A stretch of DNA of 63,927 nucleotides, counting the filler, from Syncephalis fuscata S228 (Eukaryota; Fungi; Zoopagomycota), in assembly GCA_025786725.1 (NCBI GenBank). It is 6 parts of 6 records of this genome, joined end to end, with 100 filler letters (N's around TTAATTAATTAA, not from the genome) between each part and the next. Parts side by side here need not be neighbours in the genome. Positions count along the whole stretch, not along the records: positions 34,504 to 56,028 come from JAHLTZ010000153.1; 5 more parts are not named here. The stretch is one strand, 5' to 3'. The number at the start of each line of letters is the position of its first letter. Within the stretch, counting starts at the first letter, position 1. Of this stretch, positions 2,001-62,152 are shown in pieces. The position numbers and the translations under genes were made by a program. Under the pieces are notes generated by a model. The model had not been told where the DNA came from. It was given only the letters and a program-made list of their open reading frames with translations, and ran no database searches.

Positions 2001-3400
2001 AGAATCAAATGAATACATTAGTAACATTCGCGCAGTTGAGCTAAACTTTTTTTTTGGTGAATATAAAGACAGGCGATGAGTAGCACCAATCATCAAACCA
2101 TCAAGTTATAAGTTTATTATCCTGTATACATAGATGTATTCATTCATATTACTATCATTGTACATTTATACAAACATATAGTATTTCATCATATATTAGC
2201 CAACTTTATTCAAAATTATTGTCCGTTTGGAAATAACTCCATTATTTGTGAATTCCACTCATTTCATTCATTAAGCTAAAATGCATTATTGTTTCAACAA
2301 CGTCATTTATGTCTTATCTAAAACATAAAGAGTGAGCAAATAGAAGCAAGATTTACAACGAATAAAGCTAGTGGCAAACGAACAACAGTGTTGAATAGAA
2401 TGTGATTATTAGAACATGCAACGATATAGAATAAAACAAATAGACAATAAGAGTGTATAGATAATGATGTTGAGACTGTGGTGTATATAACCTAATGAGC
2501 AAATGACTCGAAATTCATAATGAATATAGTTAGCAATAAATAGACAGCTTTTATTAGCAACTTTTGGCTATTAGATGACATAATAATCCATGATACTGAA
2601 CACAATGGCAAAATACAAACAGCGATGTTAAAGCTGTAGCGCATATTGCCCATTGAACAAATGAGTAAACAATCACAGTTAGTAGAGCTAGAATTAAACA
2701 GACAACATGTTTGAACAAAGTGTAGCAGTTATATGGTAGAGCGATACACAATATACTTAGTATACAGTGGAAACTGTACGATTAGTAGTGTTGAAGTTAC
2801 TGAGCATATATGCATGAGCCAATGAGCGATTGAGCTGAAATTTACAAAAAAATAAAGCTAGCAGTAAAAGAACAACTGCAAGAGCTATCACACAGTTACA
2901 ATATAGTATAATAACATACAATATACTGAATATGCAATATTGAGTGACGATTAGTCGTGTTAAAGTTACTGAGCATGTATGCATGATCAATGAGCAGAAT
3001 TAGTCGGCATTTATAAATAATAAAGCTAGAACAAAAATAAAAATAGTTTTGGATAGAGCAAGGCTAGGCAAGTATAGAATAGTATATAAAATGATAAATG
3101 TACGGTGAGGAAACATATAAAATGCTGTTGACGTTATAGCGCATATAGTGCAATGAGGGGAATGAGTAGAGTGTGTTGAAACATATAAACAATAGAATGT
3201 GTCTAGTATATCATAAAAGGATATATAGTAGCGTGGAATGGAATAGAAATGATATATATGAATATTGGATATATGTGTATTGGATATGTGCATACTGAAT
3301 AATGAATCTACAACGATGAGTATTTGATGATTGATGTCATTCACCATCAACTAGCATGTTCAATAGATTAGATGCTATTAAATGTAGCCATTTGACCACC
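2001..3400. mobile_element. Non-autonomous foldback/MITE-like element, family A (copy 1)
   Basis: The left end (..TCAAATGAATACATTAGTAACATTCGCGCAGTTGA) and right end (..TTAAATGTAGCCATTTGACCACC) match the inverted ends of the copies at 17.6-18.6 kb and 61.0-62.2 kb. Internal subrepeats contain AATAAAGCTAG. No coding capacity. Confidence 0.6.
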
Positions 3401-14672: not shown

Positions 14673-14755
14673 TATGATGGAGCTGCGAAGTAGTATATAC
14701 TATACATATAGTCTTTATTACCTATTGTCGCAACAATAACCAATAGTAAATTGTA

Positions 14756-16181
14756 CTAATTAAACAATTTGGCATCGATTGCATTAAATAGTGTGTATGT
14801 TCCAGCTAACACACTAATAATGCCGGTAAATAAAGCAAATGTTGTAAAAATGGCTCTAGAGTCAACTGTGCTGGCTGATTGAGCTTTTGACTGATTGTCA
14901 TTTGATGCAGCATCCTTGTTATTTGGTTTATCTTTCTTATTCAATTCTACCGACAGTTGTTTATGCTTGTCTGTAATTGGATAATGAGCGTGTGTCAATT
15001 CAGCGCTTTGCATTCCACCAAAGAAATCCATTACAGATACCTAAATATAGTATGATAAATAAAAGTAACAAATACAAAACTGATAGCTTACTTTATCCAA
15101 TGATTTTGAGTACAAGTCTAATCGAACGCCATGATTAGACCGCATTAAATCAAAATTAAATGTATCAAACTAGTTTTATTTGTTAGTATTAAACAATAAT
15201 GCTTATTTATGGTGGCTACATACCAATTGTTGGAAAGTCGTACTATTATCCTTATTATTGACATTCTCCATAAATTTTAATGTATAATAGGTATATCTAT
15301 CAATGACAGCCACGCCAAGGTCACCATCGGCCTGGTATGAATAGGAGTTTTCACCACGCTCACTACTACCAGTAGCCAATACATTAGGCGAGTCGATTCG
15401 TTCGTATAGCGTATTAGCTTGACAAGTATCTATCATAAATAGAATTTCGTGGTATCTAATAGACAATAAGCGTTAATATACAATAATTGATCAGTAAATT
15501 GCTCGTTTTACCGTCGTTTCTCGTGCATCTGTGCTATTGCATCAGCAATATCCTGTCCACCAATCTCTTCTGCATCTTGAAACTTAAGAAAATCGTCGCC
15601 ACCATGTCCGGCCATAAAAATAAGAATATTAGATCGATCGTCGGTCAATAATCGCTTTGAACGAGGCACCTCTGGCGTGTGGCGACCCGTTAAAAGACGA
15701 ATAAAGTTTTCAACTGTAACATCGTAGCCGCGATAGTCGACTTCGATGTTCTGTCCAACTAGTTCAAGCTGTTTGCTCGCACTATTGTACACGGTGCCTG
15801 GATAGGCGTTACGTCCGTTACAGGCAACATCGTCGGCAAGCATTAATATAATATTAGTATCAGGAATTCCAAGTCGTTTAACTGTGCGATAGATGGAAAG
15901 TGTATCGGCAATATGGCGATAGTTGAACCAGTACCGAGAAGTACACACCTAGATTGCAACTTTGTTATGACTCTTGCGAATAAACAACAGCTCTACATGC
16001 TTACTAGAACAGCCCAATTATTTGTATGACCAGTGTTGCCAAAGAATTCACGTAATCGCGGCTCAGTCGTGGCTGCAGCAGGCACCACTGTTTCTACAAT
16101 AGTATCGCCCTGTACTAGTCCCAACAGTAGCTGTTGGTATAGTGCCAGCAGTGACACTAGCCACCAGTATATAGTACGCAT
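14756..16181 (-). CDS. GPI8: GPI-anchor transamidase catalytic subunit Gpi8/PIG-K (peptidase C13), copy A, 5 exons
   Basis: Signal peptide [21 protein letters not shown]|[11 protein letters not shown], catalytic GHGG and DTCQA, and a C-terminal TM helix. Confidence 0.93.
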
Positions 16182-16480
16182 CTCTGTACTGTATATACTA
16201 CAGTAAACAATAGAATATATCAAATAGACCAACAGTAGTCACAGCAGCAACACCAACAATAACAGCAGCAATAGTGGCAAATAGTAATAAGCAAGATGAA
16301 AATAAGTAAGAGAAAGGAGAAGACCAAGAAGGAGACAATATATTTGTGAGGTGTAAATACGAGAAAGCGTCACCACTTTATTTCTTTACTCTAGTCGAAA
16401 GATTTACGCCAACTTAGACAATTCACTGCACCTTACTGCCTTCGACTGCATTGGAATAAGTCCTAGTGTATCTGTTTGGT

Positions 16481-17418
16481 ATGAGTCAAATAGGCTTTTC
16501 TCTTGTGGGATCAGACTACGGCTCGGACAGTGATAGCGAGACCAGTAGTCCAAAACCAACACCTCAACCAATTGCTAGTCGGGTGGATAACATTGATGCT
16601 AGCGCGACAAAAACCGCTTCACCACAAGCTAGCACTAAGCTTGATACTGCAGATATTCCACAAAATGATAGTCAATCTGATAATACAGAACAACTGCCTG
16701 TCGCTATAGAAGTTGATCAACAAGAGACGGTTCAGCCCGAATCATTAAGCTATCCCTGGCCACCTCCTATACCTGGTGCCACAACTGAGTGGGGTCTAGC
16801 ATCACCAACGACGGCTATTTGTGACGAAGATTTTCAAGTAAGTTTTTTAAATTGATTGACGCGTTTAAAACAAGTATGTTTATAGCAACAAATTAGGCCA
16901 AAATTGCCAATTGGCACGAGTTAATGAAAAACGATCAACTTTACTTTAATGATCGTCTACTTGGCAGTCAAGCCTTTCGAAACCCACAGCTTTACGCAAA
17001 GCTAGTCGAGTTTTTTGAATTAGATGAGTTTGGTTCCAATTTACCTAAGGAAATATATGATCCTCACGGCTTTCCGGCATCAGGCTATGCGGAAACAATT
17101 GGTTAGTTACTGGCATATACATTCATATATATATATATATACCAAGTAGTTAAAAATGTTTACACGCCTAATTATTAATTTTAGTCAAAGAACAACAACG
17201 GAAGGCCGAAGAGCGAGCATTAGCGCATCATGCTCGTTCACAAATACAGTTTGTTAGCACTACGCCGGCTGTGGCCACCACTACAAATACTACCGAGTCA
17301 CCAAGCGGTAAACTAAAAGCTTAATTTAACTATTCAGTATGAATGCATCTAACACAAATGAGCAGTAGGGAAAACAAGCACTAAACGACGCGGACGATGG
17401 GACGTAGTCGGCGAATAA
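16481..17418 (+). CDS. SAP30-binding protein / HCNGP-like protein, multi-exon
   Basis: N-terminal LVGSDYGSDSD, core FNDRLLGSQAFRNPQLYAKLVEFFELDEFGSNLPKEIYDPHGFP, IQFVS, and C-terminal KRRGRWD. Confidence 0.85.
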
Positions 17419-17633
17419 ATTGCAGCGGATGCATAATAATATACTGTTTATTCTGACCTATTAAGCTAATTATAGCTGACTTTTATTAATTGTATTGATT
17501 TTGTAAATAATTTGTTAAATAAGCAGAAAACAAAATAATATATTTAGTATTATATGAATATTTATTGCTATAAATGATAATAAACTTTATACAATTTGTT
17601 TATGAACCATTTATTAGCATTTTCGTGTCATTT

Positions 17634-18570
17634 GAAGGTCAAATGGCTACAAGTGATAACATTCGCGTAGTTGAACTACATTTTTGTTCTATTGAACATG
17701 GGGGCGAGTGGTGAGTTTTATTTAATCGTCACATCATCACACTTATTGTTTTGTTTGGTGGTCAAATGACTATTTTTAATAACATCCAATTTATTGAACA
17801 TGATGGTGGGTGGTGAGTGACATCAGTCATCAAATACTCATTATTGTAGTTTTATTGTCCAATATGCATATATCCTCCATTTACTTACATTATTCACATT
17901 CTGTCCCACACTACTATGTATCATTATATGTTATACTGAATACATCGTATTGTTATAAGTTTCAATTACATATAGCCTGCCGAATGAATGAGGTGAATGA
18001 GTTGAGATTTATTAATGATAGTACCAAGGTAAAAAAAACAGTTGCAATAGTTGATGCGTATTTATTAGACAATAAATTGATATAAAAATATAATGAATAT
18101 GCAGTATTGAACGCGATTAGCAATGCTCAAGCTAATGAGCATTTATACATGATCAATGACCGACATTAGTCGACATTTATTAATAATAAAGCTAGAGCGA
18201 AAATAAAAGTAGCTTTGGATAGAGAAAAATAGGTGATTATGAAATAGTATATAAAATGATAAATGTACAATAAGAAGGCATATAAAACGGTATTGATGTT
18301 ATAGTGCATATAATGCAATGAAAGGAATGAGTAAAGTGTAATGCAACATATAAACAATAGAATGTATCTAGATATTATAGCGTGCTATATGGTAGTATGG
18401 AATAGAAGGGGAATGATATTTGTAATATAGTATATATGCATACTGAATATCAAATCTATGGTGATGAGTATTTTAACCTTTGATGTCACTCACCATCCAC
18501 CATCATGTTCGATAGAAAGATGTGTAGTTCAATTACGCGAGTATAATTAATTGTAGTCATTTGACTACCA
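17634..18570. mobile_element. Foldback/MITE-like element, family A (copy 2), inside the spacer between the GPI8 arms
   Basis: The left arm 17634-17850 is the reverse complement of 61920-62152. The right arm 18460-18570 resembles 3316-3400. The interior matches 2970-3300. Confidence 0.65.
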
Positions 18571-34641: not shown

Positions 34642-35173
34642 CGTGGCACTGCTACAGCTAATAAAATCGACAAATAAAGTAGAATAAAAAGTCCGATTCA
34701 AGAACTTGCTAGAATGGCGGTAAAAGAGGCAGTGGCGTCATAAATAGATTGATCATATTGATCATTTAACAATTTACAGATATTCATTCAGATGAACTAG
34801 TATTTATTAATATATTGCTTATATAGCATAGCACTTTTACTATCCATTGCTATGGAGCATTGGCATACTGGCACTGTAGAAAATCGATGATGCTTTGTCA
34901 TCGGGCTATTACTATTCCCGGGCATCACTCCGCAAAGACCCGTAAGAAAACGGGTAAAGTAGGATTCATGCTGTTGTTCCGATATACACTTAAAACATTT
35001 TAGCAACTATTTATGCCTCGTGTTTGCCTGGAACAACACAAATCATCTGCATCGGTTTCCCTTTTATCTTTTCATACATATTGTAGCATCCAAGAGACAT
35101 TGAGATAGTCTCTCTTTTTCATACAGTTACTACTACTACTACTGCTGCTGCTGCCTTTTTTTCTATTACAAAT

Positions 35174-35935
35174 ATGAAGATCCTTACGCAAAAAGAAAGT
35201 GACGAAGCACAGCAGGCCGCCATCAACGGTGGTATCAAAGGAGCTGCCGTTGGCCTTGCCGCTAGTTTGGTGCTTTCACTTGCTGCACAGCGCTTTTCTC
35301 CCGGGTATCGCCGCCTTACATTACCGCTTAAGGTTTTCTTTGTGACGGCCGGCGTATCAGTAACTACGGTTATTCAGGCAGAACATGAAATGGGAGCCTA
35401 CGAAGTAGAGCGAATGCGCCGTCGTGGATCGCAAAGACCTACACTTGAGTCTATGTTGAATCCGGATCAAGTTACTGCCCAACAACATCAAGCGGAATTA
35501 GCCATGGTGCCAGCACGCCCATTGGCACAACGTACAGTCGATTTCATCAATGCGAATCGATGGTCAGTGGTTGGTAAGTAATATAGCTTCTACGCAATGT
35601 GACTATGTTTATTGATTTGCTGGTTGTTTAGGTGGTACATGGGCTACTGGTATGGTTGGTGCTGGTACCTATCTCTGGGCACAAAAGTAAGCATATACAG
35701 TTAACCATTAGTAACAATTGCTCATTCTGTATTATCATTGCATTATAGATATATGACATGGCAACAAAAGCTTGTCGAAGCACGTATGTACGCTCAAGCA
35801 ATTACCATCTTTGCCTTATTGGCTACAGCTGCTCTTTCAATGTCGCAAGAGCCAGTTAATCCACAAGCCGTGAAAGATGACACATGGCGTCGTCGACTAG
35901 CCTCGGCTCCAGAAAAGAACGCCATTTCTCAGTAA
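35174..35935 (+). CDS. RCF2: Respiratory supercomplex factor 2 (HIG1-domain protein), 3 exons
   Basis: MKILTQKESDEAQQAAINGGIKG..., NRWSVV|GGTWATGM, MTWQQKLVEARMYAQAITI. Confidence 0.88.
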
Positions 35936-36376
35936 TCATTTGCAGTATATTAACATTAGTAAACTTGTTATCAATTTATTATTGCTGTTGTTATTAATGT
36001 TTCATTTGTGACTAAGCAAATATTTTATTTCTTTTTTATTTAAACTATTACAAGACAGAACAAACAAAATATTGTTTACTAATTGAATAATGAACTACAA
36101 ATATCAATAATCAAAGTTTAATATAAGAACTATTTTACTTTGACTCGCTATTCTTAAATTGAAGAACAAAAAGATCCATAATTCGAATGATAAATCGTCC
36201 ATCAGTTTTTACTACTGAAAAGTGCTATTTGTTAAAGCAGTGCACATCAACTCCGATTGAACTAATCAGAGTCAATTAATCTGCACTATTTTCAATATTT
36301 GATATCAGTGTTAATAAATGGTAAATAGTATTTCATGCTACTTACAACAAAATGTTACATTTGATTATGATGTTTA

Positions 36377-36710
36377 TGCAACAGTAGAAGATTGGAAAAT
36401 AAAAGAGACCATTTAGACGCAATAATTCATGCTGTATATAGATGCAACAACAATCAATGCGGAATGACATGGAATCGCGATCAATGACTTCTATTAATAT
36501 TTGATTAATCTTTCTACACATGGCCAACGACAATAATAATCGGCCTCAAATGTTCCAAAGAAATCAAATATTATGCTGCAGTAGTTATTTAAATCAATTT
36601 ATTAACAATATTTTAATAGGAAGTAATATAACTATGTTTGTTGCGCATAACTGTGCGACTTCAATTGGAACAAGTTTTGCTTTGGGGGTTTCAAAATGGT
36701 GAATTTCAAA
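36377..36710 (+). mobile_element. Fanzor/TnpB 3'-end relic (copy 1)
   Basis: Translates as CNSRRLEN..IHAVYRCNNNQCGMTWNRD /frameshift/ MTSINI*LIFLHMANDNNNRPQMFQR, i.e. the second ZnF CxxC plus the RuvC-III WNRD..A..NI motif. Confidence 0.7.
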
Positions 36711-36839
36711 AATGCCACTTTTTCAGTTTTCAATTTTAAAAAAATTCATCATAATAAATTACAATTTTAAATAAGCATAAATAAAATATTAAAATATTAA
36801 TTTCTTTTATTAAGAAAATATATCTAGATGTCTACTAAA

Positions 36840-38200
36840 CTATTTGAAAAAGTTATATTTACCAGTATTGAAGAGCTGAGGATTGCCGTTGACGAGTTTA
36901 AACTTGTTAACGATTGCAATTTTAAAAAGAAATGCTTTAACAAGATTATAGTCTATTTGTTCTCATGAAGATCGTTCCGACAACAAATGTCAGCTTGTTT
37001 TGACTACCGGAAAGCAAAAGATTGGACTGGTAAAGATTGCATTAAGCAATATTAATTATTTTAATGGTTATCTATATGATTATGGTAATGCTACTATTAA
37101 ATATGTTACTAACTATATTACAAATGATATTGCTACATTCTCAAATATAAACTAAAAGATGTACAAGTAAAAGCATTAAGTACATATTTAAGTATTTAAT
37201 ATACATTAACAATTATAATAGCATAATAAATGCTAGTATTTCTTATTGCAAAGCTTGGTCTGATTTTGATTTAATAAAAGATAATGGCATTGTTACAACA
37301 ATAGCAATAGAATGATGTAACTTTAACCAAGCAACCAAAGGAGGAAAAGAAATAGCAGTAGTAGCTTAGTCAAATGTTTTAATATCAATTTAATAAAAAT
37401 ACTATTATTAATATAAAATAACTTTAACTTCGAACAATAGTTTGAATCAGCAGAATTATAACAGAAGTTACAACTGTATAAATCTTAATAATAAACTAAA
37501 AATTCCTGATAAAAAAAAGGTAATTTAGAATTTTGCTTATTTACGTAATTTACTTAATTGTAGCAATATTAACAGCAATTTCAATTGTGTTTTATTTGTT
37601 AAAAAACTTTCAACAATATACTTGTGACAAATGCAACTTAAAAAATACAATACAAAAACATTCATTGTAGGGGTTAGTATTAATAATATTAAACTGATGG
37701 TTAGTGTTGAAATAAACGTTTTTATTGAAAAGCAAATACAAACTGCTAATAAAGCAAATGTTAAAATAAATAAGTGTAATACAAAAAAATTTAATTAATA
37801 AATATTCTTTAAAATATAAAATTAACTAACAAATAAAATTCAAGTGGCTTATTTAGAACGTTTCAGATATTAGATTTAGCAATTAAATAGTTCCTAGTTA
37901 CATGAGAGTATTATTGCTCTGATCAACTCAAATTAATTAATTGGTTATCAAGCAAGAGTGAAGATATGTAAAATAAAGCCGTCAACATGGTATTTGTCAT
38001 CGATAAACTAGAACAATCTATTTGTAACATTCATTCTTAAATTCTGCAGTAATCGCTCTAATGTTCTAATTTAGAAAAGCCGTGGGACATGGCAAAAGAA
38101 GCTTAAGAGAATGTTGTGGCGGATCATTTAAACCACTTAATTTGTATTAAATCTTATGATATTTTTATTAACTAAATAAAAATAACTTTTTCCACAATAT
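36840..38200 (+). pseudogene. Possible highly decayed DNA-transposase (MULE-like) remnant
   Basis: The fragment FTSIEELRIAVDEFKLVNDCNFKKK resembles MuDR-type N-terminal motifs. The rest is AT-rich with many stops. Weak call. Confidence 0.25.
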
Positions 38201-38892
38201 TAAGCACGCTATTGGTTGTTTAGTGTAATTTGGCAGTTAAATAGCTATAATAGCTTCACATTTAAACTAAATATTTGTGTTATTAAAGATAAAATTGAGT
38301 GGTGAGTGTCGTTGGTTATTAAACTATTTATTTATCATTATTATTGTACTGTACATATCTATCTTGTATACACATACTATATGTTCGTCTATAGCATTAA
38401 TATTGTATGTTTTATTGCCATGTTTTATTAAAAAACGTTTTTATTCTAATTTTAGCATAACGTTACTTAGCTATATGATAATGATAGCTTTGCTACTACC
38501 CATACCAATCTATGCCTATAGCTTAAGCGATATGATCATACACATTTTATTATTAATTTAACTATTTAATTAATAGTTGCTAATTATTGGATACAAATAG
38601 AACATGCTTATAAATATAGCAATTTGATTGTATATAGTTAAGATGAAACCATAAGTTTATTATTATAAACTTGCACAGTTGAATATGGGCAACTAGATGC
38701 AAAGTTGTTGGCAAAATAATGATTTCATTGATTAAAGACTGGATAAGCCGGAGCATTGGCCAAAACTTGATATATAAATAGACTGGACGGTGTAGTTGTC
38801 AAATGGTCTTGCTTTTTACCGAATATATACCTAAAGTGTATTGGAATAGTGGTTCGATTGCACTACCAATGCTAATGTCTTGAAACCGTTGA

Positions 38893-41027
38893 TTATGCTG
38901 TATTTACAAATAAAGATATTATATGTCATATAATTAATGTATAAACCATCGATATACAATACTACTTACAACCTATTAGTATTAAGTTGTTGGTACACAT
39001 GGTGTATAACATGTAGTTAGTGAGTAATTAATTAATATATAATACAACTTACATTCCTCTAATGTTGATTTGTTGATAGATACAGTACATGATATATGAT
39101 TAGTGAATATCCAGTTAATATACAATACAACTTACTATCTATTATATTAAGTAATTGATACACACAGTACATATTATATAATTAATGTATAATCAGCTAA
39201 TACACAATACTACATACCGCCTATTAATATTAAATAATTGGCACAGTCAGTAAATAGTATAGTTAATATATAGTCAGCTAATACACAATACTACTTACAA
39301 ACTAATGATATTAAATAATTGGTGCAATCGATAAATAGCATGTGATTAGTGAGTAATCAATTAATACACAATATCACTTACAGCCTATTAATATTAAATA
39401 ATTGGTACAATAAATAAATAGTATAGTTAGTGTATAGTCAATTAATATACAATACCACTTACACCCTATGAATATTAAATAATTGGTATAATCAATAAAT
39501 AACATAGTTAATATATGGCCAGTTAATACACAATACAACTTACCAGCTATTAGTATTAAATAGTTAATAACATTAGTAAATAGCATAGTTAATTTATAGT
39601 CAGTTAATATACAATACAACTTACAATCTATTAGTATTAAATAGTTAATAACATTAATAAATAGCATAGTTAATTTATAGTCAGCTAATATACGATACAA
39701 CTTACGACCTATTAATATTAAAGAATTAATACAGCCAGTAAATAACATAATTAATGTATAGTCAGTTAATGTACAATATCACTTACCCACTATTAATATT
39801 AAATAATTGGCACAATTAGTAAATAGCATAGTTAATAGATAGAAAATTAATATACAATACAACTTACTGCCTATTAATAGTAAGTTATTGATACACACAA
39901 TACACGATGTATAATTAGCCAGTAGTCGGTTGATATATAATGCTACTTACATCCTATTAATATTAAATTAATACACACAGTATATGGATATAATCAGTGA
40001 GTAATTAGTTAATATAAAATGCCACTTACTTTCTATTATATTAAGTTATCGATGCACGTAATTCATGATATATAATTAGTTAATACTCAATTAATATGCA
40101 ATATAGCTTACTAACTATAGCATTAAGTTGTTGATATACATAATACATGGTATATAATTAATTTACAAGTCAGCAACATACAATACAACTTACGGCCTAT
40201 TAACATTAAGTTATTGATAGATATAGTGTATAATATATAATTAGCCAATGCTCAAGCAATATACAACATAACTTACATGCTATTAATATTGAGTTATTGA
40301 TACACGTATCACATGGTATAAATTAGCACATAATCAGTTAATATACAATACAACTTACCCCCTATGTCATTAAGTTGTTGATACACACAATACATGGAAT
40401 ATGATTAATTTATAAGTCACCAGTATACAATATTACTTACTGCCTATTCGTATTAAGTCATTAATCCACATAGTACATCATATGCAATCAGTAAGTAATC
40501 AATTGATATACAATACAACTTACATCCCGCTAATATTAATTAGTTGATGGATGTAGTACATGGTATATAATTAGTGTATGTCCTATTGATATACAACGCA
40601 ACCTACCAGCTATAAATATTTATTTGTTGAAGCACACAGTACATAGTATATAATTAGTGCGTAGTTAGTTAATATATAATACAACTTACAATCTATTAAT
40701 AATAAATAGTTGATACAATTAGTAAATAGCATGTGATTAGTAAGTAAGTAATTAATATACAATACAACTTACCTTCTATTAATAATAAATGATTGGTACG
40801 ATCAACAAATAGCATGTGATTAGTGCAGTCAATTAGTACACAACGCAACTTACTGGCTATTATAATCATTATTTAGAAATACTGTTAGTAAGCATAATAA
40901 TATGATATATCTATTGTTATTGCAGCATACCAGCACGACGAACTAAGGCTGGATTGGCATCCACCATGACTGTAGCGGCCACAAGCGCAACGACAATGGT
41001 GCAAACGACGGCAATGGAAAGCTTCAT
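38893..41027 (-). CDS. Micro-exon gene encoding a secreted Cys-rich prepro-peptide (26 exons; 59 aa: MKLSIAVVCTIVVALVAATVMVDANPALVRRAAKDSAGCRACLKRCMGHSGCFCDKECS*)
   Basis: Exon 1 is 41027-40931 (97 nt, phase 1). Micro-exons, minus-strand sequence: 40856-54 CCA; 40775-73 AAG; 40692-90 ATT; 40609-07 CTG; 40529-24 CGGGAT; 40443-41 GCA; 40361-59 GGG; 40279-77 CAT; 40196-94 GCC; 40114-12 TTA; 40032-30 AAA; 39953-51 GAT; 39870-68 GCA; 39789-87 TGG; 39708-06 GTC; 39627-25 ATT; 39546-44 CTG; 39465-63 GGT; 39384-82 GCT; 39301-299 TTT; 39220-18 GCG; 39138-36 ATA; 39058-53 AGGAAT; 38972-70 GTT. The last exon starts at 38897 (CA TAA). All 25 introns are GT(A)...YAG and ~72-80 nt long. Confidence 0.9.
38898..40930 (-). 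repeat. Degenerate ~81-83-bp tandem array formed by the paralogous introns of the micro-exon gene
   Basis: Recurrent + strand motif ATACAATACAACTTAC-NNN-CTATTAATATTAA, 24 times. This is the reverse complement of ..TTAATATTAATAG-NNN-GTAAGTTGTATTGTAT. Confidence 0.92.
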
Positions 41028-41316
41028 GGTGATATTGATTTGTTAAGACAAACAAATAAAAGAGATAGTAGAGTGTGGTTGGTATAGGGTAGAGAGTAGT
41101 GTGTGTTTAGTAAGAAGTAGAGTGTGATGATGATATCGCAGTTGGTTGTGTATATTTTGTGGGCTATTTAAATCTATGGTTATGCTGAAGTACTGGTATA
41201 CTGTAGTATACGATATATACAATTGCTGTGTAATATGAACCAATAAACCAATCCAAACAGTGGTTTGAGGTGCACATGTACCAATAGATTCATGATGTGA
41301 TAACATGCTTCCTAGG

Positions 41317-41399
41317 CTTGATTTTAATCTGCTCGGCCCTGATGCAACCTGCTCAGTCTTAATTTTAACTTGTCCGGTCTTGATTTTAATCTTCTCGGC
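41317..41399. repeat. Four degenerate ~21-bp tandem repeats (CTTGATTTTAATCT[G/T]CTCGGC) upstream of the micro-exon gene
   Basis: The units are directly visible; units 1 and 4 differ by one base. Confidence 0.6.
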
Positions 41400-43159
41400 A
41401 TTTACGCAGCTGACGCGGCAATTTCAATGAGCAGTACATATACGATAGACATGTACATCATTCTGTATCTTCTGTTGCACGATTTAACTATTTGGTGAAA
41501 GCAAGATATTGTTTGGTTTTGTGAAAACGATAATGATGTCTTTGCTGCCATTTCTACCAATTCAGTCCTCAATATCTGTTGCATACAGAATAGCACACAA
41601 AACTGATGCAAAAACAAGCTTAATGTATCAAACTGGTATTTTATACAGGTTTTACTACCATACATAGGTCGGCCATAATTTTTAAATTATAAAGTGTGTT
41701 GATTGGTACATGTATGCATTTTATTCGACATTATGCCTATTGTTACAGGGGTAATCATTGTTTTGAATCCACAAATGCATCACATTCAGGCATATCATGC
41801 TACATGTCGTGCAACTGCCACCATTCAAATAAAGGCTAATTCTAATCACCTGAAACTGCCTATACAATAAGTACTATTTGTAGCATGATGCATCACAGCA
41901 TTTTGAGCAATGAAACAGTCCAACAAGTCATTTTTGTCATCAGTCTTCTGCTGTAAACTAGATTGCATCGGATAAACTACACGCAATACAATATGCAGAC
42001 ACTGAACTAGACACAATAGGAAGCCCTAACCAGTTACCAGCAATTTCGAGTGCACAATGGCTGTGAACTGCATATCAACCGGTAATCATACAAGGCCTAA
42101 CTGCTGCTTACATTTCTGAAACTACTTTTGACAAGTTAAGCAAGATAAAATGTAGAAGAACAAACCAAAGCAGAAACCAATGGAAAACAATTGGCAGCTC
42201 AAAGGTTTACTGGTTTAACCTGTGGCAAATTATTGTAGCTATGCTAAGCTGGACTGTGTTTATCAAAAGTTGGCTGTTGCTGATGCAACTAGAACAGCAG
42301 CAATGTTAAACCAAGATAATACACAGAAAACAGAGAGTTGTAAATATAATTGAATTAACAAGTTTAGTAGTTAAATAATGTTAAAATTCTATTCTTAGAT
42401 TTACAACTCAGCATTTATGATATCTGGGAATATTACATCACCCTGTTTCTCCCGATCATAATTACTAAATACAGTAAGCGAAAAGTAAAATCTAGATCTT
42501 CCCAATGTTTCTGATGTCCAATGACATCAACAAACATTCGATTACATTCCATTCCCATAAAACAAGTATTATCTACATATACTTACGTTGTTATAAATAC
42601 AGCAACAATCAAACACATAAAATAAAACATTATCCATTTAATCATATCCAATTGTTTCCCATTGAACTAACTGTTTACCACAACAAATAACTTATTATTG
42701 GCACTATAATTTATAATTCTGGCTGTTTGTATGGATAAATATTTACAATCACATTGTAACTTCTTATATATTTACATTTATACAACCATCAACTAAGCCA
42801 ACTACTATAAGACTTAATCTAATCATTTATTAGAGTAAGTAACTAACATTATACATTATTGTAATAATAAAAAGACATATTAACTTATTTATTGACCATT
42901 AATAAAAGTTGTATAGCTGTATATTAAAATAAAATAACAAATTGAGCGCGTAATACTTATATAATCAGATCATTTTTACTTTGACTTCACATATTTTATT
43001 TACTCATTTCACCATCTTTTTCTTATTACTATCTTATTACTTTATTCAGTAATATATTATCTGATAATGCCAAATATAACAATATAAATAGCATGCGTAT
43101 TTGAACATTAATAAAAACATTATTCAATCCCTAGTCTTTGTTTCTCTTATTTTACATCA

Positions 43160-43740
43160 ACACCTGTTCAAGTAACCTCAACGGCATGCCGTATATTCTG
43201 GTTACAACTGCCGCCACAAGATCTTCCTGGTGAAGACAGTCAGCCTATCATTATTGCATATGGTAGAGGCCATTTGCTTCATCAATGATTGGCAAATAAT
43301 CTGCGCCTACCAAGTTGATACCAAGAATGCTTAAGACAATGGTGAACATCAGAAACGCTAGTCGTCCTACCTTTTTGTCACCATAGACGAGTATCTTACA
43401 TTGCAAATATGCCCAAAATGCAACAGTAGAAGATTGGAGAATAGAATAGACTATTTAGATGCAAAGAAACCACACTGTACGTAGTAACAGCAACAACAAC
43501 TGCGGAACGATATGGAATCGCAATCAATGGCTTTTATTAATATTCTATCAATCTTTCTATGCATAGCCAACAACAACGATCGGCCTCATGAATTTCAAGT
43601 AATCAAATAAAGACACTATACTTGTGGTTTGTTATGCATAACAGCAGTAACAGTGGCTATCCTACGGCCACTTTGTTACAATTGACTTCAATTGGAACGA
43701 ATTTTGCTTTGAGGGCTTTAAATGTGGGAGTCAAAGTACA
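43160..43740 (+). mobile_element. Fanzor1/TnpB-like nuclease pseudogene (C-terminal RuvC/ZnF region) plus 3' non-coding end (copy 2)
   Basis: Allowing for frameshifts and stops it reads PIIIAYGRG/FASSMIGK*SAPTKLIPRMLK../FVTIDEYLTLQICPKCNSRRLEN../NCGTIWNR[N]/MAFINILSIFLCIANNNDRPHEFQ. This follows the Fanzor1 motif order (G..F...G..AP, DE..TS..C..C, C..WNRD..A..NI, RP..F). Confidence 0.78.
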
Positions 43741-44090
43741 ATAAAACCAATCAAATCATTGGCATTATTTTAAAACAGATAGTATAGCTGGAATTGTATT
43801 AAATATAACTAATTGTAATAGGTTAGGTTGCTATCCTGATAACATGGCCATATTGCCATGATAGTGTGCCTAAGAGATATATTGTATGGCTGGAAAACAT
43901 ATTACATTGAGCGGCACAATAATATATATATTGGATATCAGCGCTAATTACTAACAAACAACAAACAATTATGAAAATATGGCCTGTAGATGTTCGTTAA
44001 ATGTAATAACACTAATGATAACATTAAAATAATAGCAATATATAGGTAATCAATGTCATTTAATTAAAAAACATTAATTGATGTTTAAAT

Positions 44091-44537
44091 CTACTCATAG
44101 ATGAGCGATTCGATGACACGCTTGTGGGACTGGACACCATCCTTGAACCAGAGGGAGATTTCATGTTCGGCGCTCTCGACGCTGTCGGAACCATGGCACA
44201 AGTTGCGACCCATATCAATGCAGAAGTCGCCGCGGATGGTACCTGGAGCTGAAGCCAATGGGTTGGTGGCACCGAGCATGACACGGCCAGTCTTGACGAC
44301 TTCCTTACCGCCCCAGACCATACCGACAACAGGGCCGGAGGTCATGTAGGTCATAAGGCTTGGGAAGAAGGGCTTGCTCTTAAGATCGGCGTAGTGCTCT
44401 TCCAAAAGATCGCGTGTTGGGTGGATAAGACGCAGGGCAAGGAGCTGGTATCCCTTGCGTTCGAAACGGCTGATGATATCGCCGACCAAACCGCGCTCGA
44501 CGCCGTCAGGCTTGACCATGATGTAAGTGCGCTCCAT
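44091..44537 (-). CDS. NDK1: Nucleoside diphosphate kinase (intronless)
   Basis: [34 protein letters not shown], active-site RNLCHGSDS. Confidence 0.97.
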
Positions 44538-45432
44538 AATGACGTTTAGGATGTAAAAGTTACAGTTGTCGCCTTAAAAGAGTGATCGAAATCCTATAAG
44601 CAAGAAGAGAAGAAAAAGAGTGGCAAGGTGCAAGTGATAGTGTGGCGCCGGAATTGTCCGCCTTTTTGAAACTTTTTTTTTCTTTCTTACATGGGCGAAA
44701 TTGTAGTACGTCGTACCACTTTAGAACTGCCACTTGTTCGGGTTGGGGCCCTTCTATCTACAAATGGGCAATTACTTCACGTGTGTTCAGTAGTGCTTAC
44801 GCATACGCTACACTGTAGAGCATTCATTAGAATATTGTAAAAATGTGCTACGTAATTAATAGCCATCATGTATGATGTACGATATATCAATAGGTCAATG
44901 GCACACGATAATAGCAAACCATTTATAGACAAATCTCAAAGAATGACATTTATTGCCAAACAGCAATATCAATGTAATACAAAATCGTCATTATTAATTG
45001 CAAGATTGGTAATTTGTAAAATATCAAACAGTAGTTTTCTATCGTGCCGCAATGTTATACCGTATCGGTACTAATATTATAAATGAAATGTATCACTGAT
45101 ACAGTTTACATTAAATGTTAAATCTACTAAATAAATATATAAATGATCTATTTTATTTGTTAATTAGTTAGTTATTGCTATTATGGAGTAGTAAAGTGCT
45201 GCTAGTATTAGTGAGTTAATTCAATAATAGACCGGTCGATTCACTGAAACCAAACTACTATTCTATTTATTTATTTTATAGTTTGCGGTTAAAACTGATA
45301 ATAATCACTGAGGGCGTAAAGGCCTAGCACGTCCTGATCATTATAATCGACAATAAGCAATTGAAATGATGATCATTAACGTTAATCGTCATGATGATAG
45401 CCGCAATAGTATTGCTAGCTATAGAGGGTGCT

Positions 45433-60602: not shown

Positions 60603-60982
60603 TGCCGCTTTATGCTTATATTTTTGATTTATACATTTATTACTAACTTTAACTTTTGTACTAAGCACATCAATATTTTGTTTATATGTTTATTATTAAA
60701 ACACATTATTATTGCATAAGTTTCACTTCAATTTTAAGTAGAATAATAACATGTTATTATTTATCTTATTTATTTTACTAATTAAATACAACAGTTTTTT
60801 ACAAACATCAATCTATTACAGTTAGCTACATTTAATACAGCTACATTGACACTGCTCATTTTAACAATAATATCAATTATTTATATTTAATAGCATTTGC
60901 AGTTAAATTACATATTTGTTTTATTGAAATGGTGACGAATGGTAAAAATATTAATGATTAAATTATCACACTGTAGTGTTTG

Positions 60983-62152
60983 TTTGGTGGTCAAATGATT
61001 ACATTTAATTATATTCACGCTTAAATTAAACTTTCTTCTATTAAACATGAAACTAGGGGCAATTCACATCAGGGTCCAAAATACTCATTATCACAGATTT
61101 ATTATACAGTATGCATATATTCAGTATACATATATATTTTATTCATTTATATCACTTCCAATATGCCCTACACTATTATATATCATTTATAATATACTAA
61201 ATGTATTTTATTTATTATATACACCAACACACTTCACGCAGTCCACTCATTACGTTATACACACTGTAACTTTAACATTATTTATATACTTTCTCACCGT
61301 ACATTTGTCATTTTATATATCATTCTATACTCGCCTAGTCTTCCTCTATCCAAAGCTGGTCTTATTTTTGTTCTAGCTTTATTATTAACAAATGTCGACT
61401 AATTCCGCTCATTGATTATGTATATATGCTCAATAACTTTAACACTGCTAATCGGCACTTCGTATTATATATTCGTTATATTACATATCATTCCATTGTC
61501 TAGTTTATACGCGCTAGTTATTGCAATTGTTCTTTTTGTTCTAGCTTTATTATTAAAAAAGTTTAACTAATGTCAATCATCTTGTTTATTAGGCTAATGC
61601 TCAATAACTTTAACATTGCTAATCTCGTTCAATATTACATATTCATTATAATGTTTATCATTTTATTATATATTGGCCATACGCTGTCTATAGCCGTTGT
61701 CGGTATAGTTCCAACTGCTTTATTAATAAAAATTAACCTATTGCACCTAGTCTGTTTACTAAGTTGTATTGGTAGAATAAATAATATGAATATGAATTGA
61801 ATTGTTTTATTAAGATTATTTATAAACAAACTATATCATGTCAATTAGTTATGATTTTAATGCTACTCAAGCAAAGTGACGGGTGTATATAGTAATAATA
61901 CATACTGTGATGATATATGCATACTGGACAGTAAATTTACAATGATGAGTATTTGATGATTGATGTCACTCACCACCCATCATCATGTTTAATAAATTGG
62001 ATGTTATTAGATATTAGTCATTTGGCCACCAAACAAATAATAAAAGTGATGATGTGGCGATTAAATAAAACTCACCACTTGTCCCCATGTTCAATAGATT
62101 GAGCGTGCAGTTCAATTGCGCGAATGTTATTAAATTTAGTCATTTGACCCCT
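60983..62152. mobile_element. Foldback/MITE-like element, family A (copy 3)
   Basis: Inverted ends TTTGGTGGTCAAATGATTACATTTAAT ... TTAAATTTAGTCATTTGACCCC. The interior is the reverse complement of ~2950-3300. Confidence 0.65.

Follow-up and report, generated by a model that had tools for sequence, protein, structure and literature searches.

The closest described systems are the nank genes of Tuber melanosporum and the MEGs of Schistosoma. The nank genes, which encode NACHT-ankyrin NLR proteins, are described in the cited sections of PMC4986451 and PMC13449251, with reference to Iotti 2012, as having tens of codon-sized exons and extensive alternative splicing. In the Schistosoma MEGs, which the cited sections of PMC4350168 and PMC10526429 describe as restricted to flatworms, most exons are about 15 nt (range 6-81), introns are 0.1-5 kb, and micro-exon skipping has been verified. 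Within the fungi, skipped exons made up 3% of alternative-splicing events over 23 fungi, for which intron definition was proposed (section cited from PMC3925392), and 0.5% of events in Coprinopsis long reads, where exons of 3 nt or less occur in 89 gene models (section cited from PMC12230235). A donor and an acceptor only 3 nt apart cannot be occupied simultaneously, which is the steric problem of micro-exons as set out in the cited part of PMC8831610.

The window referred to throughout is the whole stretch of Syncephalis fuscata DNA that was analysed (63,927 nt). On its minus strand lies a gene in which, by a model that we are confident is correct, a leader exon is followed by a string of codon-sized exons; no further micro-exon array and no copy of exon 1 was found anywhere else in the window. 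The parts of the gene, with positions counted along the window, are as follows.

40931..41027, minus strand: coding part of exon 1 (97 nt), with the ATG, a hydrophobic signal-peptide-like leader and a short pro-region
38898..40930, minus strand: 25 GT-AG introns of 72-80 nt, introns 2-24 having diverged from a single tandemly copied unit of about 79 nt
38970..40856, minus strand: 24 micro-exons (22 of 3 nt and 2 of 6 nt, total 78 nt), encoding the predicted mature six-cysteine peptide
Micro-exons 1st to 8th, minus strand: 40856-54, 40775-73, 40692-90, 40609-07, 40529-24 (6 nt), 40443-41, 40361-59, 40279-77
Micro-exons 9th to 16th, minus strand: 40196-94, 40114-12, 40032-30, 39953-51, 39870-68, 39789-87, 39708-06, 39627-25
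Micro-exons 17th to 24th, minus strand: 39546-44, 39465-63, 39384-82, 39301-299, 39220-18, 39138-36, 39058-53 (6 nt), 38972-70
38893..38897, minus strand: coding start of the last exon, which finishes the final codon and is followed by TAA and then the 3' UTR
38661: AATAAA, candidate polyadenylation signal in the 3' UTR

The coding part of exon 1 closes in phase 1, one base into a codon, and because it is 97 nt long all 25 introns are phase 1. Its pro-region ends with a dibasic RR, likely a Kex2-type cleavage site; the leader and the cleavage were both judged by eye. The micro-exons supply 78 of the 177 coding nt and nearly the whole predicted mature peptide, the remainder being mostly the leader exon. 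An earlier note on this DNA had claimed that every micro-exon is a multiple of three nucleotides flanked by phase-1 introns, that introns split all six Cys codons, and that any one exon can be skipped without creating a stop. These statements were all borne out: 24 of 24 such exons were found at 40856..38970 on the minus strand, the Cys codons are divided as T|GC (five times) or T|GT (once), and none of the 24 single skips introduced a stop. Both of its worked examples were reproduced, in that skipping 40443-41 converts C-R to W, and skipping 39301-299 converts C-F-C to C-C.

Each micro-exon sits between a TAG and a GTAAGT-like donor, and the micro-exon donors read GTAAG in 22 of 24 cases. Across the whole window the acceptor-NNN-donor motif is present 18 times, always within the array, against 0.83 expected, and none of 100 shuffles contained 18 or more. 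GT..AG is kept in 25 of 25 introns although copies 2-24 average only 72% identity, and in every one of introns 2-24 a YTRAY branch-point-like motif precedes the acceptor by 41-45 nt. In the last 40 nt upstream of the acceptors of these same introns there is no AG at any of 897 positions, where shuffles predicted 26 (the copies being related and not independent). To repeat finders, introns 2-24 appear as an 81/83-bp satellite; a pure satellite was considered and rejected in view of the motif excess, the kept GT..AG, the AG-free acceptor tracts, and the exon/intron divergence contrast and Cys framework described below.

Some features of the introns bear on other splicing outcomes. Intron 1 differs from the repeat unit (52% identity) and contains an AG at 40882, straight after CTAAC and 25 nt upstream of the modelled acceptor; splicing to this AG would shift the frame. 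Introns 2, 14 and 16-19 (40853-40776; 39867-39790; 39705-39385), six of the 25, are 78 nt long and open in frame, and retaining one of them would add 26 residues without a stop; another 8 introns stay open for at least 20 codons before a stop. Intron retention is the commonest alternative-splicing event in fungi.

Inclusion of all exons yields a 59-aa product that has the pattern C-x2-C-x3-C-x5-C-x-C-x3-C (spacing 2-3-5-1-3), with a predicted mature part of 28 aa containing 5 K/R and 3 D/E. When the exon order was shuffled, an open frame with at least six Cys was obtained in 0.25% of 200,000 shuffles. One shuffle in 500,000 was open and had its six Cys arranged as in the 2-3...3 framework (19 had at least five Cys), a figure that flatters the gene because the framework was defined after viewing the paralogs. 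The shuffle result supports the full-inclusion peptide as the presumptive product under selection.

The paralog P0121 served as a stand-in for the window peptide in searches and structure prediction. Its mature part was predicted to fold as helices (pLDDT 83.7); the full-length model had a pLDDT of 66 and a best fold-search Z of 2.6. The mature part had no match in Foldseek at E <= 0.001, and its best Z in VIA was 3.5, with no stand-out match and weak helical-hairpin matches only. The ESM Atlas gave no usable match, the best E of the PDB sequence search was 0.14, and no Pfam family was found at E < 0.05 across 11 aligned family sequences.

A search with the leader returned 16 public proteins, all of them hypothetical proteins of Syncephalis fuscata spread over several contigs; no public protein model of the window copy was among the matches. 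Residues 1-31 are 65-90% identical to all 16 paralogs, and the sequence after the RR is widely different. P0121 (spacing 2-3-11-5-3) and P0124 (2-3-13-3-3) have the outer 2-3...3 framework in common with the window peptide and differ from it in their loops. These are the only two of the 16 with that framework and the two with six Cys; one other has eight Cys and 13 have 0-5, and the remaining public models may be mis-annotated or genuinely different. In P0122 and P0127 the tail aligns with a translation of the intron unit (window 39062-40776; tblastn E 3e-7 and 9e-7), and therefore the same intron unit trails the same leader on other contigs. These two models likely run into intron, whether by misannotation or because they were built from intron-retaining transcripts. 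No family member outside S. fuscata was found by leader-based protein searches, which unannotated genes would escape; the nucleoside diphosphate kinase of the neighbouring gene shares 93% identity with its Syncephalis pseudoplumigaleata counterpart. The literature search found no paper on this gene family in Syncephalis, although the supplements of zygomycete genome papers could list such genes; the main text of PMC9391592 does not mention Syncephalis.

Run X1, which we guess to be RNA, consists of assembled contigs only, in which rare variants are dropped; the contigs were placed at 85% likeness over 35000-44700. Among the 15 of 44 joints that were listed, at least 8 contigs connect the exon-1 end with the last exon (positions 38896/38897). 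Summed depth was about 1e5 on either side of the array, in exon 1 and in the last exon, versus 28-930 in the array bins, contig depth being a poor measure of expression. Contigs of the same run skip two ordinary GT..AG introns in the neighbouring gene. The inserts and loose ends, among the matches listed, differ from the micro-exon string of the window copy, and three of them, read by eye, give other short peptides with Cys; five loose ends fall at 40934, with an agreement of 0.57. In one contig the first intron is retained with the first micro-exon position, followed by six exon-like codons and then by the intron unit; it resembles a partly spliced paralog, and a paralog with one longer exon would look identical. 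In one joined contig the insert is 13 codons long, includes two Cys and meets a stop after 11 codons; it could be a skip product. The joined contigs look like paralogs, and their variety could represent paralogs or it could represent skip isoforms. From the joints and inserts it follows that the family is transcribed, with splicing that links exon 1 and the last exon via a short variable middle. At 98% likeness only 5 of 30 bins were covered, in the 5' part of exon 1, in the last exon and in one bin of the array, without a joint, and the spliced message of the window copy was not seen; at that level the contigs are uninformative either way.

Several repeats lie elsewhere in the window. An inverted 1.8-kb duplication (14707-16493 and 20401-18621) is 97% identical and has the same ORF in each copy, which looks like a GPI transamidase (Gpi8); at 1-1155 a 30-bp tandem repeat occurs in three blocks within a duplicated segment. 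Dispersed repeat families, 68-86% alike, are found at 2850-3400, 17600-18570 and 60900-62150, and also at 36376-36695 and 43418-43722; both members of the last pair are covered by many diverged X1 contigs and perhaps represent a transcribed mobile element.

Within the array the intron copies are 72% alike and the 3-nt exons 26% alike, which equals the level of random triplets. When the introns were divided into three-column windows (n=68), the lowest conservation was 36% and the median 70%. The likeness of introns showed no relation to the likeness of the adjacent exons (Spearman 0.008, p = 0.90, over 253 non-independent pairs): for the 13 intron pairs that are at least 80% identical the next exons are 26% alike, and introns 16 and 17 are 96% identical with the exons after them agreeing at 1 of 3 bases. 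The introns of the two 6-nt exons rank among each other's best matches, and both of these exons look like the result of an acceptor moved 3 nt upstream. Periodic duplication of multi-exon blocks was not evident, in that intron identity drops slowly with distance and has no clear period. The locus has changed fast at the DNA level. The divergent codons may represent selection, or conversion that homogenises the introns with the codons held by the peptide, or both; divergence that is greater in exons than in introns does not alone prove shuffling, since positive selection and/or intron-only gene conversion also fit.

The main proposal of the earlier note was that the gene yields a combinatorial peptide library at the RNA level by exon skipping. 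What stands of this is the gene model and a layout that permits in-frame skips, whereas symmetry and freedom from stops do not call for skipping as their explanation. Equal phase and 3n length are found because a unit of intron plus 3 nt was copied tandemly inside a reading frame, copies that were not 3n being lost. The idea that stop-free skips represent design was rejected, as 12.8% of 100,000 exon-order shuffles likewise had no stop after any single skip. Contiguous multi-exon skips gave a stop in 14 of 300 cases versus 17.6 in shuffles conditioned on an open reading frame (P = 0.33). Single skips lost a Cys in 11 of 24 cases, kept the outer framework in 9 and kept the exact spacing in 4; six Cys without a stop were kept by 29% of double skips. 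When all 2^24 exon subsets (16.8 million) were enumerated, 79% were stop-free and 0.095% were stop-free with at least six Cys. By arithmetic, 2% skipping at each exon would leave 62% of messages whole, and some skip isoforms almost surely exist.

A metagenome collection was scanned for three consecutive 3-nt exons, which gave 125 stretches in 27 of 64 parts; 124 loci were stored. These included 37 distinct loci with at least 8 strict units, 27 of them with at least 4 different triplets; the other 10 were left out for low triplet variety, and include CRISPR arrays and microsatellite-like matches. In the 27 loci the introns are 81% alike and the exons 38%, and phase 0 is open in all 27 versus 15 expected for random triplets (related loci not being independent). 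The ORFs flanking 7 scanned loci encode NACHT at two (one with ankyrin repeats around the array), HET at two and Cas1 at one, with nothing found at the other two. Four phase-0-open arrays (L031:2361-4006, L013, L014 and L030) lie within or beside NACHT-ankyrin or HET-domain genes on what are probably fungal contigs, and that of L031 lies inside the ankyrin region, as in Tuber nank. The layout is therefore not unique to the Syncephalis gene and fits the Tuber precedent in other fungi; the scan suggests that codon-sized exon arrays are common in fungi. Among the 124 loci there was no clear homolog of the window gene, only 8 weak blastn matches to its AT-rich parts. CRISPR repeats can imitate the acceptor-triplet-donor motif and are a source of false matches in such scans: L002, L036 and L080, among the longest apparent arrays, have an invariant triplet and were rejected, L036 as a CRISPR array, in which Cas1 was found, and the other two as likely CRISPR arrays from their like pattern.

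We think it fairly probable that the locus is intact and belongs to a large family of Syncephalis genes for predicted secreted peptides, that its exons are mostly all included, and that the family is diversified in DNA by copying, loss and exchange of units. The short introns would be recognised singly, by intron definition, and a 3-nt exon would therefore need no recognition of its own; the product would be a helical hairpin of about 28 aa with three disulfides, freed at the RR. Unequal crossover or conversion between look-alike introns, in one gene or between paralogs, would keep the frame, gain or lose whole codons and form one hybrid codon. Such in-frame intron exchange would account for paralogs with a common framework but different loop lengths, and it would give single-residue combinatorics in heritable form, exposed to selection. 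Syncephalis fuscata is a parasite of other fungi, and this lifestyle, together with the plan of conserved leader and variable peptide, points to a possible role toward the fungal host or competing microbes. Against mostly full inclusion stands the report, in the cited sections on Tuber nank, that genes of like layout are extensively alternatively spliced.

An RNA-level library, in which micro-exon skipping would give many in-frame isoforms per gene and the variant peptides would be made and useful, is compatible with change at the DNA level; we regard it as possible but doubtful. The symmetry of all exons, the absence of a stop from 24 of 24 single skips and from 79% of subsets, and the diversity of the joined contigs in X1 are all in keeping with it, as are the precedents by analogy, one in a fungus (Tuber nank, second-hand) and one in the schistosome MEGs. 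Also in its favour, a donor and acceptor 3 nt apart are sterically exclusive in the cited part of PMC8831610, exon 2 has an internal AG immediately 5' of its donor whose use would reduce this exon to zero length, and GT stands at the start of exons 15 and 24. Yet symmetry and stop-freedom arise without need of selection (P = 0.13 and 0.33 in the shuffles), the Cys count becomes odd in 11 of 24 single skips and stays at six in just 29% of double skips, the splice signals are uniformly strong (GTAAG in 22 of 24) with upstream AG competitors absent, and skipping amounts to 0.5-3% of fungal alternative splicing. Functional skipping keeps the standing that we give it because it is reported for the codon-sized exons of Tuber nank. 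A two-level device, in which a highly expressed family would have its residue-level exon cassettes reshuffled between paralogs in DNA and also varied by skipping in RNA, appears to us rather unlikely; if true, it would be a single-residue library of secreted peptides against changing fungal hosts, and arrays of codon cassettes would be a general fungal diversification device for immune receptors and secreted effectors alike.

It is improbable, in our judgement, that the array is a tolerated by-product of intron-unit slippage in a real family, with diversification by ordinary point mutation and skipping as noise. Tandem duplication of a 3n unit would explain the whole layout without any benefit, and isolated exons of 1-3 nt are ordinary in fungi (89 Coprinopsis gene models in the cited section of PMC12230235); but the exons are randomised relative to the introns, loop lengths vary among the paralogs, and such arrays turn up again in other fungi next to NACHT-ANK and HET genes (4 of the 7 loci scanned). 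Genes of the NACHT-ANK and HET classes are known to be under diversifying selection. A window copy that is silent, or a satellite-like relic in decay, with its 59-aa product not being made, would fit the lack of a public protein model among the leader-search matches; we hold this to be very improbable given GT..AG in 25 of 25 introns despite 28% drift, the open frame and the intact six-Cys framework.

The gene is an extreme of architecture: 25 splicing events assemble 78 coding bases, and each mature codon is split between two exons. Such genes resemble satellites and are therefore missed or misread, as seen in 2 of 16 public paralog models that enter the intron unit and in the lack of any for the window copy. 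Through such misread models a family that is seemingly very abundant in the probable RNA run X1 of a mycoparasite stays largely hidden, and its members are candidate host-interaction or antimicrobial peptides. The locus offers a way to test the fidelity of an intron-defining spliceosome on serial 3-nt exons, and to test whether it is in DNA, in RNA or in both that arrays of codon-sized exons diversify proteins.

Some known peptide systems resemble the predicted product. Plant alpha-hairpinins, nigellin-1.1 and the CS-alpha/alpha scorpion peptides are helical hairpins with C-x3-C motifs; the window peptide likewise has C-x3-C motifs near both ends, and the mature part of P0121 is predicted to be helical. 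Among the weak fold matches of that part are nigellin-1.1, at Z 2.7 and rmsd 2.5 over 34 aligned positions, and a fragment of walnut Jug r 2, at Z 3.3 and rmsd 1.8 over 33; all Z values obtained are typical of a common arrangement, unrelated helical pairs reaching them too, and there is no Pfam or PDB sequence match. Conotoxin-type precursors have a conserved signal and pro-region, a hypervariable cysteine-framed mature peptide, and introns that are more conserved than the mature coding sequence. The Syncephalis gene is like them in its conserved leader, its variable Cys-framed peptide and its introns, which are better conserved than the mature exons; no homology is claimed. Conotoxin mature regions are not known to be split into one-codon exons, as the Syncephalis mature part is, and toxicity is not implied.

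The comparison with nank, as far as the cited sections describe it, is that of two fungal gene families with tens of codon-sized exons (here 22 of 24 are 3 nt) for which diversification is proposed. In Syncephalis, a zoopagomycete, the array, which is in phase 1 with each codon split over two exons, codes for all of the mature portion of a small Cys peptide predicted to be secreted; in nank it codes for part of an intracellular receptor. NACHT and ankyrin domains are absent from the 59-aa product (family Pfam scan, none at E < 0.05), and alternative splicing is reported for nank in those sections, whereas in the Syncephalis array it would be a possibility that the layout permits. Like the MEGs, the gene has numerous small symmetric exons that form most of the mature coding region, here downstream of a signal-peptide-like exon, and it belongs to a multigene family of a parasite that is difficult to annotate. 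It differs from them in its 3-nt exons, its introns that are tandem copies of 72-80 nt, and its fungal organism, and no sequence relationship to the Schistosoma MEGs was found. The Syncephalis gene works MEG-like in layout, yet belongs to neither the MEG nor the nank family.
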